Shown in pieces: positions 6,125 to 31,858 of a stretch of DNA of 38,764 nt. The DNA is from Eubacteriales bacterium (GTDB taxonomy: Bacteria > Bacillota > Clostridia > Oscillospirales > CAG-272), in assembly GCA_045657645.1 (NCBI GenBank), contig JAZOTL010000003.1:1-38764 (forward strand). The letters run 5' to 3'. A program made the position numbers and the translations under genes. The notes below the pieces were generated by a model, which was given only the letters and a program-made list of their open reading frames with translations, made no database searches and was not told the origin of the DNA. Position 1 is the first letter of the stretch. Each line of letters begins with the position of its first letter.

Positions 6125-7747
6125 ATGAATACAAATAATAATGGTAAAAAATTATCTCCAATGGATGAGATAATGCAGGTAACAAGGCGAGCGGTAAATC
6201 CCAATCAAACCCCCGAAGTGCCTGCTCCTAAAACAGAAGCGGTTCAGCCCCGCCGTGTTGCGCCCCCTGCTCCTTCTACTACTGTTGAAAAGGCGCCTGT
6301 GAAAGAAAAAAACGTGGCCGACTATGGCATAGAGGTTCCTGATTTACCTCCGCGTAATCGCGCTGCTTCTTCAACAACATACGCGGCATCGTCTGTGTCA
6401 AGGGCTGAACAGGTTCGCGTAGCGCGAAGCAACGCTGCAGGTACCCGCAGTGAGGCTGAACATACGAGAGTAATGCAAGCAACCCCGGCTCCTTCTGATA
6501 AAGAAATGCGTGAAAGGGAAGAAGCTGCAAGGATAGTTAGTGCCAATAAAAGGGCGGCTAATTCTCAAACCAGATTGACCGATACTGTTCCTTCGGTATC
6601 TGCTCGTTCCTATGAAGAATCAAAAAAAACCAAGGCAAATAAGAACGGTTCTGTAGGAAACCAGGCACAGGAGGTAGGTACAAGGGTTCTTTCGGGAACT
6701 GTTAAGGCGATAATTTATATCGTATCTGTACTTGTAATTTCTGTTTGCCTCAGTTTGTTTATAATATTCGTTGGAAACGATTGCTTTGCTTTTGTTAAAA
6801 CCGACGTAGACGTTACCGTTTCTATTGACGAGGGTGGCAATCTTTCGGATATAGCAGACGTTTTGCATGATAATGGTGTTATAAAATATCCGGGATTCTT
6901 CAAAATGTACGTTAGGTTAAGAAACAAGGATGTTGATGACTATCTTTCGGGCAACAGAGTTGTTAATCCAACCATGAGCTATGACACTCTTATTGCAGCA
7001 TTTAAGCCTTCGTCGGCGCGAGAAGAAGTTTCGGTTACCTTTATTGAAGGTTCTACTACCGATGAAATGATTGAAAAACTTGTTTCAGTGGGGATAGGAA
7101 CCAAAGAAGGTTATAAAAAGGCAATAAACGAAGGGGAATACGATTTCTGGTTTGTGGAGCGCCTTGATGCTGTTGACGGCATTGAAGATAGAAAGTATAG
7201 ATTAGACGGTTATCTTTTCCCTGATACCTATAACTTCTATACCGATTCAACCGAGGAAGAGGTAATATACAAGCTTCTTGAAAACTTTAATGCTAAATTT
7301 GATGAAGCAAATTCAGACAGAGCTATGCAGCTTGATATGACCGTTGATGATATTGTCATACTGGCTTCTATAATACAAAAGGAAGCAATGTATATAACAG
7401 ACTATCCTTTGGTTTCATCTGTTTTCCATAACAGACTTAATTCCCGTGAAACAAACGGTATGCTTCAGAGTAACGCAACGGTTCAGTATACTATGCCTAA
7501 GGAAGAGGTAACCATAGAACTTTCTACAGAGCAGATTAATAAGTATGATAATGCATATAATACCTTCCTTTATGAGGGTCTGCCCGTAGGTCCTATTTGT
7601 AACTCATCTCTTAATGCGCTTAACTGGGCGTTGTATCCCAATGATACAGATTACTATTATTTTGTATCCGATGCACAAGGCTATAACCTTTATGCTCAAA
7701 CATACTCCGAGCACCTTGCAAATATAGCAAAAGCGGCAGAAGAATAA
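6125..7747 (+). CDS. mltG: Endolytic murein transglycosylase MltG (YceG-like) with a long N-terminal extension
   Basis: The C-terminal roughly 330 aa is YceG-like (single TM, DGYLFPDTY, ASIIQKE, NAYNTFLYEGLPVGPICN). The N-terminal roughly 195 aa is low complexity and rich in A/P/S/R/E. ATG 6125 follows GAGGTG; an alternative ATG lies at 6113. Confidence 0.9.
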   Translation: MNTNNNGKKLSPMDEIMQVTRRAVNPNQTPEVPAPKTEAVQPRRVAPPAPSTTVEKAPVKEKNVADYGIEVPDLPPRNRAASSTTYAASSVSRAEQVRVARSNAAGTRSEAEHTRVMQATPAPSDKEMREREEAARIVSANKRAANSQTRLTDTVPSVSARSYEESKKTKANKNGSVGNQAQEVGTRVLSGTVKAIIYIVSVLVISVCLSLFIIFVGNDCFAFVKTDVDVTVSIDEGGNLSDIADVLHDNGVIKYPGFFKMYVRLRNKDVDDYLSGNRVVNPTMSYDTLIAAFKPSSAREEVSVTFIEGSTTDEMIEKLVSVGIGTKEGYKKAINEGEYDFWFVERLDAVDGIEDRKYRLDGYLFPDTYNFYTDSTEEEVIYKLLENFNAKFDEANSDRAMQLDMTVDDIVILASIIQKEAMYITDYPLVSSVFHNRLNSRETNGMLQSNATVQYTMPKEEVTIELSTEQINKYDNAYNTFLYEGLPVGPICNSSLNALNWALYPNDTDYYYFVSDAQGYNLYAQTYSEHLANIAKAAEE

Positions 7748-28929: not shown

Positions 28930-29556
28930 TTAGTTTTTGATATATAGTTTAAAATCACAGCAGTTTCCGCCCATTCCCAAGCTATGAGTTCTTGCCCAAA
29001 CAAGCTTTGGGTGCATATTTGCATAGCATATATCATCGTTTATACAAAAGAATTTTGTAAGTTCGGGATGGTTATATTTGCTGCACATTGTTATGTATGG
29101 GCAGGAGGTTATATCTACGGCAAAGCCGTTTTCACAATCTTTTTCAATGTATTCAAAACCTGCCTCGTTGCCGAATTTCAAAACCAGGAGTTTTTTCATC
29201 ATCCACGGAACTTTTTTGTATAATCCCGGAATTTTCATAATGTAAGGTATAACAGAGGCCATTTTTCGTACTTTTATAAAGCACCATTTTTCAAATGTTT
29301 TTAAAGCTTCATTTTGGTTACCTGTTTTGTTAAGCAATGCTTCGTAAAAAGAAATGCAGGGTAATATTTGTTCAAAATGTTCCATTGTCGCCTTGCTGAC
29401 GTTTCTATTTTCCTCTATTAGCTGTGCCGTACGTTGTATAACATTGTCAAGTAAATGCCCAAGACCGTTTTTTCTGAATTGGTCGGCAAGAGCAGAGGGC
29501 ATAGGCTGTTTTTTTATGTATTTTTTTGTAAGCCGTATATATTTTTTGTTATCCAT
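28930..29556 (-). CDS. L-2-amino-thiazoline-4-carboxylic acid hydrolase (ATC hydrolase) family protein
   Basis: The C-terminal pattern CPY...C.....PELTKFFC..DD........L.W.RT..L..GG..CDF matches my memory of that family. The start was set at ATG 29556 (MDNKKY) after GGGAG. Confidence 0.6.
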   Translation of the reverse strand: MDNKKYIRLTKKYIKKQPMPSALADQFRKNGLGHLLDNVIQRTAQLIEENRNVSKATMEHFEQILPCISFYEALLNKTGNQNEALKTFEKWCFIKVRKMASVIPYIMKIPGLYKKVPWMMKKLLVLKFGNEAGFEYIEKDCENGFAVDITSCPYITMCSKYNHPELTKFFCINDDICYANMHPKLVWARTHSLGMGGNCCDFKLYIKN

Positions 29557-29625
29557 AGTTGACTCCCGGGGATAATTTGATGATATCAAAGCTATTTCCA
29601 ATTGTAATTTGAACGTGCGTGATTT

Positions 29626-29973
29626 TTACTTCACATTCTCCTTTGCGGTGTTGATGGAGGCAATTAAAATACGTCGGATTGTACCGCACTGATTGTAAAG
29701 TTCGACAGCGGTTTCTCTGTTCAGAATATCGGATTTTACGAATAATTCCAACCAATATTCTGTTTCATAGCACTCCTTTAATGCTATTTGTAGTTTAGCA
29801 ATAAAATCAGGCTTTCCGTGGGCATAGTTTGCCTCGTGGATATTAGCGCCGATGGAGGTTGCAGAACGCTCCAACTGATTGACAAGGGAATAATGACCCT
29901 TAATTGTTTCACAGAGCTTTATGACTTTTACCGCAAAATCAGTTGAAAGTTCCCGAAGTTTAGATTCTGCCAT
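29626..29973 (-). CDS. Four-helix-bundle protein (23S rRNA intervening-sequence protein / Avd-like family)
   Basis: FAVKVIKLCE...LVNQLERSATSIGANIHEA......DFI.KL.IALKEC.ET.YWLEL is the family signature. The start was set at ATG 29973 (MAESKL). Confidence 0.88.
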   Translation of the reverse strand: MAESKLRELSTDFAVKVIKLCETIKGHYSLVNQLERSATSIGANIHEANYAHGKPDFIAKLQIALKECYETEYWLELFVKSDILNRETAVELYNQCGTIRRILIASINTAKENVK

Positions 29974-30025
29974 ATAAATACCGCCTTTCTTATCACAATT
30001 ATAGCATATCAATTACAATATTTAA

Positions 30026-30199
30026 AGTGAAATATCCTTCGGATGTGAAATAATGCCCTGCGGTCATTGTGAAATATTCGGTGTGCCACCGAATGTGAAA
30101 TGAAATAAATCCACCCACGCCCGCAGGCATTTCACATGGCGAAGCCATATTTCACACGCGCAGCGTATTTCACAAATCCCGAAAGGGATTTATTTCGTT
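30026..30199. repeat. Nested inverted array: 4 x (T/A)GTGAAATA, centre, then 4 x TATTTCACA-type copies, separated by seven distinct mini-hairpins; candidate structured ncRNA or protein-binding array
   Basis: Exact GTGAAAT at 30027, 30045, 30069 and 30095. Exact ATTTCAC at 30129, 30149 and 30167, plus a degenerate TATTTCGTT at 30191. The six inter-motif spacers and a short hairpin in the centre are self-complementary, and each has a different sequence. Confidence 0.7.
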
Positions 30200-30202
30200 G
30201 AA

Positions 30203-30240
30203 AAGAAACACCCTTTGTCAGTAGACAAAGGGTGTTTCTT
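30203..30240. terminator. Rho-independent terminator directly 3' of tRNA-Arg (usable on both strands)
   Basis: Perfect 17-bp stem AAGAAACACCCTTTGTC / GACAAAGGGTGTTTCTT with a 4-nt loop. U-rich tails follow on both strands. Confidence 0.85.
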
Positions 30241-30243
30241 TTC

Positions 30244-30319
30244 TGGCGCGCCTGGCAGGATTCGAACCTGCGACCTACCGGTTCGTAGCCGGGCACTCTA
30301 TCCACTGAGCTACAAGCGC
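30244..30319 (-). tRNA. tRNA-Arg (anticodon ACG), CCA encoded
   Basis: The reverse complement is GCGCTTGTAGCTCAGTGGATAGAGTGCCCGGCTACGAACCGGTAGGTCGCAGGTTCGAATCCTGCCAGGCGCGCCA. It has a 7-bp acceptor stem, D arm GCTC/GAGT, anticodon loop CTACGAA and T arm GCAGG-TTCGAAT-CCTGC. Confidence 0.93.
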
Positions 30320-30356: not shown

Positions 30357-30385
30357 ATGATATCACATTTGTTTTATTATGTCAA
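30357..30385 (-). promoter_or_regulatory. Sigma-A promoter (extended -10) of tRNA-Arg
   Basis: On the minus strand: TTGACA (30385-30380), 17-nt spacer ending in TGa, TATCAT (30362-30357). It lies about 35 nt upstream of the tRNA 5' end. Confidence 0.65.
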
Positions 30386-30466: not shown

Positions 30467-31858
30467 ATGACTTCATACGAAAAATACTGCAGGGAGCTTA
30501 CCGATAAGCTGAGGGTAGGGCAGAGCTTTGACGTTGTTAAAAAGAAGATTACTTTAAATGACGGCCGCAGATGCGCACTATTTTATGTAAGCGGTTTTAT
30601 AGATAATTCCACTATGCAACGGGTGCTTGAATATTTTATAGAATATAAAGATACCGAAGAGCTATATGACAGGGTACCCTATGCGGAAATGGCTGACGTA
30701 AAGGATACAGACGATGCCGTATCAAAGATACTTGCAGGGGGCACTGCAGTGGTTATAGAGGGCTTTGAGCGTATGATAATGGTATTCTGCAGAAGATATC
30801 CTCAAAGAAGCATTGAAGAGCCCGATAACGAAAAGGTTTTAAAGGGTCCCCGTGACGGTTTTGGGGAAACTATGATAATGAATACAGTGCTTCTGCGCCG
30901 CCGTATACGGGACCCACAGCTTACCTTTAAGCTTGTAAGCTGCGGAGAACGAACCGCAACAGACGTCGCCGTATGCTATATAGATGATAAGGTAGATAAA
31001 AAATTTCTTTCTACCGTTCTTGATAAGCTAAAAGCTATTAACGTTGAAGCCCTGTCCTTTGGCGAACAGAGTGTTGCCGAACAGCTTGTAAAGCGGAGAT
31101 GGTGGAATCCCTTTCCTAAGGTCAGGTTTACCGAGCGTCCCGATTCTGCCGCGGCAATGCTGCTTGAGGGCAGTGTTATTATCATAAGCGATAATACGCC
31201 CGAGGTGCTGATACTGCCAACCTCGATATTTGACTTTTTACAGGAAGCGGATGATTTTTACCTGCCGCCTGTAACTGCAAGCTATTTTAGATTTATAAGA
31301 ATGATTATCGTTGCTATGACTCTTTTTCTACTACCCCTTTGGTATCTGCTTATAAGTAATCCTCATCTGATACCTCCTTGGCTTGATTTTATTATCCTTA
31401 AAGAGCCGGGAAGAATACCCGTATTGGTACAGATATTTATTATAGAATTTATCATAGACGGCTTGAAAATCGCATCCCTTAACACTCCTCAGTCGTTAGG
31501 AAACTCCTTTTCTGTTATAGCCGGTTTGATATTAGGTGAGATGGCAGTAAGCATCGGGTGGTTCGTGCCCGAGGTTATTTTGTATCTTGCCGTTATAACT
31601 ATTGCTAACTTTACACAGTCAAGCTACGAGCTTGCCTACTCTCTTAAATTTATGAGATTGATAATGCTTGTGCTTAGTGCTGTTTTTGGTATATGGGGCT
31701 TTGGGGCAGGTGTGCTTCTCGTCTTTTTGCTAATCGTATCAAACAAGACTGTGGATGGCAGCCGTGGCTATCTATATCCCCTTATACCCTGGAACGGCAG
31801 GGCAATGCTGCGTTTCATGTGCCGTGTAAGGTTAAAAAATAAAGCCTCCTCGAAATAA
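30467..31858 (+). CDS. Spore germination protein, GerA / SpoVAF family
   Basis: 463 aa. The soluble N-terminal domain (SFDVV.K.I......C.LFYVSG..D, ERPDSAAAMLLEG) plus a C-terminal 4-5 TM domain is typical of GerAA/SpoVAF. No GerB or GerC partners are adjacent. Confidence 0.85.
   Translation: MTSYEKYCRELTDKLRVGQSFDVVKKKITLNDGRRCALFYVSGFIDNSTMQRVLEYFIEYKDTEELYDRVPYAEMADVKDTDDAVSKILAGGTAVVIEGFERMIMVFCRRYPQRSIEEPDNEKVLKGPRDGFGETMIMNTVLLRRRIRDPQLTFKLVSCGERTATDVAVCYIDDKVDKKFLSTVLDKLKAINVEALSFGEQSVAEQLVKRRWWNPFPKVRFTERPDSAAAMLLEGSVIIISDNTPEVLILPTSIFDFLQEADDFYLPPVTASYFRFIRMIIVAMTLFLLPLWYLLISNPHLIPPWLDFIILKEPGRIPVLVQIFIIEFIIDGLKIASLNTPQSLGNSFSVIAGLILGEMAVSIGWFVPEVILYLAVITIANFTQSSYELAYSLKFMRLIMLVLSAVFGIWGFGAGVLLVFLLIVSNKTVDGSRGYLYPLIPWNGRAMLRFMCRVRLKNKASSK

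Follow-up and report, generated by a model that had tools for sequence, protein, structure and literature searches.

A Gut-1-type composite hairpin array downstream of a tRNA-Arg gene in gut Clostridia and its possible four-helix-bundle protein partner

We analyzed a stretch of 38,764 nucleotides from a Eubacteriales bacterium of the Oscillospirales lineage CAG-272 (assembly GCA_045657645.1, contig JAZOTL010000003.1), referred to here, at its full length, as the window. The element under study is a noncoding array of short hairpins that lies between a tRNA-Arg gene and a gene for a four-helix-bundle protein. The whole element is one composite unit of ~225 nt (30027-30243) with minus-strand polarity, consisting of a perfect hairpin (hp0), an arm of the Rfam family Gut-1 and a second, inverted arm, and it is one copy of a large repeat family in uncultured gut Clostridia. 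The minus strand of the window is called the tRNA sense throughout, and the loci and units of our survey carry L and U numbers, respectively. The features of the locus are given below in the order in which they are met on the minus strand.

30244-30319, minus strand: tRNA-Arg(ACG) gene with encoded CCA (ARAGORN; Rfam tRNA, 66.1 bits)
30200-30243, no strand assigned: hp0, a perfect 20-bp hairpin with an A-tract and a T-tract inside the stem, found by inverted-repeat search; it opens the repeated unit
30124-30200, minus strand: arm 1, a full-length Gut-1 motif (RF01706; cmscan, 77.7 bits), in the order CAACGAAAU, hp1 (30174-30191), GUGAAAU (30167-73), hp2 (30156-66), GUGAAAU (30149-55), hp3 (30136-48), GUGAAAU (30129-35)
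30186-30199, minus strand: 5' strand of helix P1, AACGAAAUAAAUCC, which pairs with 30099-30112 and competes with hairpin hp1
30128 to 30102, minus strand: centre, read from the sequence as hp4 GCCUGCGGGC (30119-28), a degenerate fifth linker GUGGGU (30113-18) and GGAUUUAUUUC (30102-12), the 3' strand of the long-range helix P1
30027-30101, minus strand: arm 2, with four AUUUCAC linkers (30095-101, 30069-75, 30045-51, 30027-33) and, between them, hp5 (30076-94), hp6 (30052-68) and hp7 (30034-44) with the loops GCA, GCA and GAA
29998-30026, minus strand: putative outward promoter of the sigma-70 type, TTTAAA-17-TGcTATAAT, matching the consensus at 10/12 positions plus the TG
29626-29973, minus strand: four-helix-bundle gene, 115 aa from the ATG at 29973 (PF05635/TIGR02436)

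The junction between tRNA-Arg and the element reads ...GCGCGCCA/GAAAAG, the first base of the element directly following the CCA, and at the far end the -35 of the outward promoter abuts the last AUUUCAC. A preliminary description of this block had reported seven exact GTGAAAT/ATTTCAC copies within 147 bp, and all were found at the positions claimed: GTGAAAT on the plus strand at 30027, 30045, 30069 and 30095, and ATTTCAC (GTGAAAT of the minus strand) at 30129, 30149 and 30167. A degenerate eighth copy, ATTTCGTT, occupies 30192-30199. The 7-mer was counted 14 times in the window, with 7 of the 14 inside the 147 bp, as compared to 5.97 +/- 2.6 in shuffles, and none of 100 shuffles reached 14, confirming that the array is real, non-random and far above chance. 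Every spacer was palindromic as described (30034-44, 30052-68 with one C.T mismatch, 30076-94, 30119-28, 30136-48, 30156-66 and 30174-91). Two details needed correction. The fourth plus-strand 9-mer, given as TGTGAAATA, reads TGTGAAATG and ends in G, and the flanking perfect hairpin is present but its arms measure 20 nt (30200-30219 and 30224-30243) and not 17. A long-range pair had been overlooked in which 30099-30112 is 93% complementary to 30186-30199 over 14 nt. The hairpin hp0 has the shape of a bidirectional intrinsic terminator, and its position and its behaviour across the family fit such a terminator, which may be its function. It was absent from a simple terminator scan that requires a T-run after the stem; the tracts of hp0 sit inside the stem.

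The block had been said to match no named RNA family, which proved wrong. An Rfam scan of the window returned only two families at the gathering score, tRNA and Gut-1 RNA. The Gut-1 match covered model positions 1-77 with an E value of 4.2e-14, its score standing well over the curated gathering score of 50 bits. The second arm, on the plus strand at 30025-30106, scored a sub-threshold 45.5 bits (E 8.7e-8 in a 581-base search). What had been described as a ladder is two convergent Gut-1-type arms. At threshold the Gut-1 model matched the tRNA-sense arm in all composite units scanned, from 19 other loci, and the opposite arm reached threshold only once among them (L089); the conserved polarity is that of the minus (tRNA) strand. 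Single-arm versions of Gut-1 with the same sense were found in Akkermansia, Bacteroidaceae and Clostridia. Gut-1 was reported from 43 human-gut metagenome sequences and rated a likely RNA, without organism or function (Weinberg et al. 2010, PMC2864571). The element is not categorically new because it belongs to this known but unexplained family. A literature search found nothing on Gut-1 after 2010, and searches on Gut-1, PF05635, TIGR02436 and heptamer repeats found only Weinberg 2010 and a paper on Coxiella (PMC4990558). That literature gave us no account of the composite architecture, the address behind tRNA genes, the insertion behaviour, the sister families described below or the link between PF05635 and heptamers.

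Pattern scans of species-representative genomes, metagenomes and viral contigs yielded 251 loci, from which a parser extracted 142 units, 126 of them distinct. In the tRNA sense a unit opens with hp0 and its A- and T-tracts, followed by (C)AACGAAAU, hp1, GUGAAAU-hairpin three times and GUGRRnn. Next come a segment complementary to the 5' GAAAU plus the 5' strand of hp1, AUUUC, AUUUCAC-hairpin three times and a final AUUUCAC. The G arm precedes the C arm in every unit, each arm has five heptamers when degenerate copies are included, and the GTG after hp4 is kept in about 75-80% of units. Five sister families have the same architecture (hp0, hp1, G arm, centre, C arm) built on other 7-mers, with the loose consensus RTGAWRY:

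L126, 1600-1960: GTGATGT/ACATCAC family
L213, 11540-11900: ATGAAGC/GCTTCAT family
L259, 3290-3640, and L033, 1-330: ATGAAAT/ATTTCAT family
L263, 2560-2830, minus strand: TGATAT/ATATCAT family
L269, 1250-1500: GTGAAGC/CCTTCAC family

The linkers of the two arms were reverse-complementary in all five. The GTGATGT, TGATAT and GTGAAGC arrays fell below the threshold of the Rfam Gut-1 model. Two families can share one locus (L259, L126), and arms of different families can be juxtaposed. At L011 (3450-3900, minus strand) a C-type arm with a CATCAT linker lies between two single-arm GTGAAAT arrays, with the hp0 of the second array immediately adjoining it. In L270, a natural deletion variant of the L269 unit (about 1330-1500), most of hp0 and most of the G arm are gone, apparently through recombination between similar GC-rich stem sequences, and the C arm and the four-helix-bundle gene are retained.

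Folding of 30024-30200 as RNA gave -67.5 and -63.7 kcal/mol on the two strands (z of -5.8 and -6.35 against shuffles), and folding as DNA gave a z of about -6.9. Covariation in the spacer stems was counted in 94 canonical units, taking five hairpins and the outer four pairs of each. These stems were 93.4% canonical in register as compared to 41-42% with the partner slid by one or two positions, with 3.15 Watson-Crick pair types per stem position on average, in agreement with the earlier claim of a structured element under selection. Helix P1 reached at least 9 nt in 81/97 units as compared to about 32% of shuffled pairings. At least six sequence classes of P1 were distinguished, changing in step with hp1, with which P1 competes for one 5' strand, and P1 is kept in the sister families with a parsed centre (L126, L213 and, approximately, L263). 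That the two arms are linked, as had also been proposed, was upheld by the reverse-complementary linkers of the sister families and by the predicted minimum-energy fold, which pairs the arms. Reverse-complementary arms fit inter-arm pairing and equally fit a single sequence-specific reader acting on both arms. The rungs of the four-rung ladder are invariant within a family; identical within a unit, they do not covary independently, which would argue for a reader and not for pairing alone.

G.U pairs were rare (1.4-2.2% of pairs), and comparing G.U with A.C gave 14 vs 13 in arm 1 and a weak excess, 25 vs 12, in arm 2 (p 0.047), so that strand assignment from this comparison was uninformative and was given up. 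Loops on the AUUUCAC-sense strand were of the C(GNA)G and GNNA types. A regular grammar was apparent, G-linkers going with UNC loops and Y.Y mismatches and C-linkers with GNA/GNNA loops and R.R mismatches. We dropped this dyad grammar as proof of a function on two strands because the pattern is automatic on the complementary strand once one strand has it. Loop-loop (kissing) complementarity between the arms showed no excess over permutation for the six hairpin pairs.

The genomic address of the family followed a strong rule. Co-occurrence of relatives with tRNA and PF05635 genes, which the preliminary description had raised, was borne out: a tRNA lay directly upstream on the same strand in 40/101 assessable units, representing 24 anticodons, and a PF05635 gene came next after the array, always on the same side and strand, in 24/110. 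A tRNA was found downstream in 1/110 units. The upstream neighbour, whether tRNA or protein gene, was co-directional in 69/75 cases. After a tRNA the junction consists of CCA, then G, TG or nothing, then the A-tract of hp0, and one hp0 family follows different tRNAs. In L190 and L145 the tRNA-Cys(GCA) before the array ends ...GCCTTCA or ...GCCTTTG, with the hp0 junction not at CCA; all other tRNA genes in these two loci encode CCA. In the window, tRNA-Arg is preceded by a near-consensus promoter, TTGACA-17-TGtTATCAT (30357-30385, minus strand), that is divergent from a GerA-family spore germination gene (30467-31858). A look-up of the exact GerA protein of the window returned no record.

Promoters were assessed in 118 units, and no promoter was conserved on either strand. 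The plus-strand promoter proposed earlier (TTATCA-N18-TACAAT) scores 9/12, a promoter scoring 10/12 or more in that orientation was present in only 2/118 units, and we do not retain it. Outward promoters of at least 10/12 downstream of the array were present in 22/118 units, and in 15 of these the array is followed by the -35 without a gap. Units with a linked four-helix-bundle gene mostly have such a putative promoter, recognized by consensus match, abutting the array. Co-directional strings of tRNA, unit, gene(s), unit and gene(s) were seen at L040, L078, L126 and L259, and behind several units (e.g. L040, L030, L078) lies a terminator that can work in the tRNA sense only.

Copies of the element also differ in where they are present. 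L040 and L078 have two copies each that are about 96-97% identical over a shared ~220-250 bp, with sharp boundaries at the start of hp0 and 0-10 nt past the last ATTTCAC, and the second copies follow no tRNA. In the two L078 copies the hp0 loop is inverted (TTAC vs GTAA). An identical 1,080-bp module of hp0, array, promoter, four-helix-bundle gene and a MazG-like gene follows tRNA-Pro(CGG) in L253 and tRNA-Arg(ACG) in L259, both flanks being different; hp0 is inside the duplicated segment here as in L040 and L078. Copies in unrelated flanks were further found for U028/U094/U048, and one metagenome-assembled genome (SGB_6406) supplied four contigs. Near-identical copies per genome in unrelated flanks are the pattern of an interspersed repeat of the repetitive extragenic palindrome (REP), bacterial interspersed mosaic element (BIME) or miniature inverted-repeat transposable element (MITE) type.

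Empty and differently occupied sites were found as well. At the site orthologous to that of the window, beside a GerA gene 77-78% identical, L262 has tRNA-Arg and a plain terminator with no array, and L263 has an array of the TGATAT family followed by a different gene. Within one species, L285-287 read tRNA-Pro CCA/TGCAGAGTGTCC..., a native terminator, and L253 reads CCA/GAAAAG..., the module; the break lies exactly after CCA and the native terminator is replaced. Large serine recombinase genes or remnants lie near the L253 and L285-287 sites. In one strain (L252, 2000-2250) two large serine recombinase genes and four TGCACCCCC repeats are located between the expected tRNA place and the CCA/GAAAAG module start, and related strains with an empty site have a DUF4368 remnant at that place. 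Other mobile elements seem to use the tRNA 3' flank as an integration hot spot. The preliminary description had named, as an outcome that would count against a structured-RNA role, a dispersed REP/MITE-like family without positional conservation. The family is indeed dispersed and insertion-polymorphic, but it follows a strong positional rule, after tRNA CCA ends or terminators, and because of that rule the outcome neither refutes nor confirms such a role. Reverse transcription that is tRNA-primed or switches template was considered for the CCA junction and set aside as speculation; no reverse transcriptase was seen near any unit. Collections of cultured phages and plasmids gave no match to the 226-bp unit.

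The gene next to the array in the window (29626-29973) matched Pfam PF05635 (E 2e-25), TIGR02436 (E 5e-29) and PDB 2rld (E 5e-22), the closest solved structure, which has five chains. The protein is related to S23p, which is encoded by 23S rRNA intervening sequences, and to Avd. Avd, a relative of S23p, is essential in diversity-generating retroelements. A homologue search with the protein returned 8,000 proteins that pass an E value of 1e-5. Among the matches listed, close homologues (87-96% identical) were mostly on short gut-metagenome contigs, and the closest loci were from Acutalibacteraceae and Oscillospiraceae. The four-helix-bundle gene of the 1,080-bp module overlaps at its stop codon with the gene for the MazG-like pyrophosphatase (110 aa; L253, 2845-3177, and L259, 2845-3177), whose place is taken in the window by a PF14196 (ATC_hydrolase) gene (28930-29601). 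The two proteins of the module showed no homology to each other (hhalign probability 0.1). PADLOC gave no match for either of them, and PHROGs matched only the MazG-like protein. Some four-helix-bundle genes after arrays look damaged: that of L033 has a frameshift (6795-7180, seen as a tblastn hit in two pieces), and those of L145 (U047) and L129 (U032) appear disrupted or fused as judged from translations of the open reading frames (ORFs) only. Such genes suggest decay of the gene while the array persists.

Repeats beside this protein family were also found when the protein was taken as the starting point. The 200 nt before the start codon were inspected for 19 viral-contig homologues with 34-87% identity, and in 15 of the 19 a 6-mer was present at least four times on either strand, as compared to 13% of background windows. 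The repeat period, judged by eye, was about 7 nt, with examples such as TATTCAT x4 ... ATGAATA x4, CAATTGA/CAATGGA x5, TAATTCG x4, TAACCTA x9 and AAGAAAT/AAGAAGT. Some of these repeats follow a tRNA and a terminator hairpin (L268, L269, L271). A GTTATAT/ATATAAC hairpin array precedes an Akkermansia homologue at a distance of about 150 nt, and a Chlorobi homologue has five contiguous GTGAAAT about 45 nt upstream. In the intervening sequence of Coxiella, three to four tandem GACAGAT precede the S23p ORF directly, in a copy number that varies between strains; the S23p protein of Xanthomonas forms a homopentameric ring, and mobility of the intervening sequence is a long-standing suspicion (PMC4990558). 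The 7-nt linkers of the window thus resemble a Clostridial version of repeats that generally accompany the PF05635 family, with mini-hairpins placed between the repeats. In L190, L145, L223 and L269/270 the gap from array to ORF is only 17-21 nt, which leaves no room for a promoter, and the array must therefore lie in the mRNA leader.

The explanation that we favour, while putting the chance that all of it holds somewhat below even, is that the element is the cis module of an insertion-prone cassette whose heptamers are putative binding sites for the ring-forming four-helix-bundle protein. The cassette would settle next to stable-RNA genes, where hp0 would supply the terminator needed by the interrupted tRNA unit and block antisense transcription. 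The five G-type and five C-type heptamers would be candidate repeated sites for a pentameric four-helix-bundle ring, five per arm, held apart and single-stranded by the mini-hairpins as spacers. The outward promoter may express the four-helix-bundle protein or whatever gene sits downstream, and gene-less copies may be non-autonomous or relics that are served in trans. A wider proposition is that PF05635/TIGR02436 proteins are sequence-specific readers of 7-nt repeats with a heptamer of their own in each lineage, that together with their arrays they form a hitherto unrecognized class of small cassettes in or beside stable-RNA genes (behind tRNA CCA ends for this element, within 23S rRNA helices for the intervening sequences), and that Gut-1 is one arm of the Clostridial version; this is possible but on the unlikely side.

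For the gene-linked copies of this proposed cassette we lean slightly towards RNA as the bound form. The fixed polarity, the strand of the Rfam match, the same-sense single-arm versions and the leader loci speak for a minus-strand RNA. For DNA speak the lack of a conserved promoter, the position of hp0 immediately upstream, G.U pairs no commoner than A.C, the C(GNA)G loops and the loop inversion in L078.

A number of observations weigh against the cassette or against its RNA form. The link between protein and heptamer is at present one of co-occurrence in sequence, a four-helix-bundle gene is missing beside about three quarters of units, and downstream genes other than PF05635 are diverse. In most gene-linked units a promoter is predicted between array and gene, which would leave the array outside that mRNA, and hp0, strong-terminator-like, lies directly upstream with no promoter room between it and the array. 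The scarcity of G.U is unlike typical functional RNAs and fits DNA hairpins, and C(GNA)G and GNNA loops are also classic DNA minihairpins. As to insertion, no target-site duplication was found at four junction pairs, and no terminal inverted repeats or linked recombinase were seen at boundaries set by the hp0 start and the last ATTTCAC. Since all sequence downstream of CCA differs between L253 and L285-287, the module there may be the edge of a larger island.

The likeliest alternative is a purely DNA-level repeat like REP, BIME or MITE elements, whose hairpins form in single-stranded DNA and whose 7-mers are sites for an unlinked transposase or recombinase. The arms would be the two ends of a miniature element, and the four-helix-bundle and other genes would be passengers or neighbours. 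The multiple copies with sharp boundaries, the many matches at contig ends, the insertion polymorphism and the inverted arms that co-vary between families, like transposon ends, agree with it, as do G.T being about as frequent as A.C, the common C(GNA)G loops and the inverted hp0 loop between the L078 copies; the orientation bias could reflect the replication strand and not transcription. We nevertheless consider it unlikely. No candidate transposase was next to any of the 126 units, no target-site duplication was seen, and hp0, although external to the inverted arms, is carried along. Conservation of seven position-specific hairpins and of P1 extends over deep splits within the family, which is more constraint than is usual for transposon ends, and the link between heptamers and the four-helix bundle across phyla is left unexplained.

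Gut-1 as catalogued would instead be a free-standing small RNA or a pair of them, in which hairpins keep GUGAAAU single-stranded, available for pairing with targets or for titration of an unlinked RNA-binding protein, with the inverted arm as a built-in anti-sense partner and the four-helix-bundle gene as merely a frequent neighbour. Rfam types Gut-1 as an sRNA with covariation support, and the covarying stems and P1, the single-arm versions in Akkermansia, Bacteroidaceae and Clostridia, the tRNA-sense-only terminators after several units (L040, L030, L078) and the fixed polarity relative to upstream genes speak for such an RNA. Against it, there is no conserved promoter on either strand, and hp0 lies directly upstream. 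An excess of G.U is missing. Near-identical copies in unrelated flanks together with presence/absence polymorphism also count against it, and it leaves unexplained the heptamer repeats beside PF05635 genes of other phyla. We regard a free-standing small RNA as quite unlikely.

An array of double-stranded operators through which DnaA or a conventional transcription factor controls the adjacent promoter, suggested by the resemblance of TGTGAAAT/ATTTCACA to Rex/CRP half-sites (TGTGAA...TTCACA is a Rex half-site pair) and loosely to DnaA boxes and by the last heptamer abutting the -35 in the window and in 15 units, is highly improbable, as sister families of equal architecture use unrelated 7-mers, a double-stranded operator has no use for palindromic covarying spacers, such a promoter is missing after most units, and the half-sites are direct repeats 18-26 bp apart and not N4-N6 inverted pairs. 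The DnaA-box cluster that had been offered as a weaker alternative falls with the sister families, which use GTGATGT, ATGAAGC, TGATAT and GTGAAGC; these 7-mers and ATGAAAT likewise ruled out boxes for Rex, CRP, CcpA and Spo0A. A type III toxin-antitoxin system (ToxI-like) was rejected on the grounds that the repeat units are non-identical hairpins and the downstream gene is PF05635 and not of the ToxN type, and CRISPR, retron and diversity-generating retroelement were rejected for want of a matching partner gene.

Three further loci were returned by the survey. The four palindromic boxes GTGAAAT(N0-1)ATTTCAC, 13-14 nt apart, at L006 (25-122, Caloramator) are chance pattern hits that resemble Rex-type operators and have no relation to the hairpin array. 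A cyanobacterial locus (L038, 5399-5635, Scytonematopsis) has GTGAAAT 18 times on one strand within 237 nt, which recalls the short tandem heptamer repeats of cyanobacteria, and an HMM search of its 7.6-kb locus for a four-helix-bundle gene was negative. On a viral contig (L241, 5130-5200) the array is followed by four tandem 11-mers, GGTAACTTGCC.

Among known systems, REP/BIME/REPIN, BOX, ERIC and bcr1 repeats resemble the element as short extragenic palindromes in inverted pairs that are multi-copy at the 3' ends of transcription units, show compensatory stem changes and may have side-effects as terminators or insulators. REP copies, however, share one palindrome, whereas every hairpin of a window-type unit is different and position-specific and the conserved part is the single-stranded linker and not the stem. 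The position rule, immediately after the tRNA CCA, is far stricter and no RAYT-like gene was seen; 2/82 representative downstream proteins matched Transposase_mut and none matched RAYT/TnpA, and neither these nor terminal inverted repeats with a target duplication accompany the element.

Integron attC sites likewise keep structure over sequence and have conserved, inverted 7-nt cores (GTGAAAT against GTTRRRY), and like cassettes the element punctuates strings of co-directional accessory genes (L040, L078, L126, L259). The core does not match the attC consensus (6/7 at best), each arm has four to five cores, separated by hairpins, in place of an R/L box pair, and unlike attC cassettes the elements carry their own terminator and promoter. 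No integron integrase was found in the neighbourhoods of the units.

TRAP is a ring protein wrapped by RNA repeats. The analogy to it is functional only: with five heptamers per arm and pentameric family members, each subunit of a ring oligomer could recognize one short repeat along a single strand, the repeats being set apart by spacers. The fold and family of TRAP are unrelated to PF05635, and it serves here as a model and not as a claim of membership.

Gut-1 itself (RF01706) shares with the element three hairpins joined by GUGAAAU and the setting in gut-metagenome Clostridia. The motif as published comprises a single arm, and it was said not to occur in sequenced organisms (PMC2864571). The window unit adds hp0, the closing helix P1, the inverted second arm, the outward promoter, the position behind a tRNA, the insertion polymorphism and the PF05635 link, none of which is in the Weinberg 2010 paper or its supplement (PMC2864571). 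In Rfam since 2010 as a gut-only motif without organism, context or function, Gut-1 gains a genomic address, a full architecture, evidence of insertion polymorphism and a candidate protein partner. The element also breaks metagenome assemblies, with many matches at contig ends, and puts terminator-plus-promoter modules between genes of abundant gut Clostridia.

The 23S intervening sequence of Coxiella and Leptospira (PMC4990558) has a PF05635 protein, 7-nt tandem repeats upstream of the ORF, inverted repeats able to form a long stem, a location in or next to a highly transcribed stable-RNA gene and a suspected mobility, and a PF05635 ORF with short 7-nt repeats upstream is what we find here. 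It differs in lying inside helix 45, with inverted repeats that flank the ORF, whereas the window element follows a tRNA, has both arms upstream of the ORF and has mini-hairpins between its heptamers; the Rfam scan gave no rRNA match in the window. Excision by RNase III has been shown for the 23S intervening sequence (PMC4990558). The locus and its relatives also show 7-nt repeats beside the PF05635 family across phyla. To our knowledge no function has been assigned in about 30 years to the S23p proteins that 23S intervening sequences encode, and with Gut-1 beside them the two old puzzles become one question.

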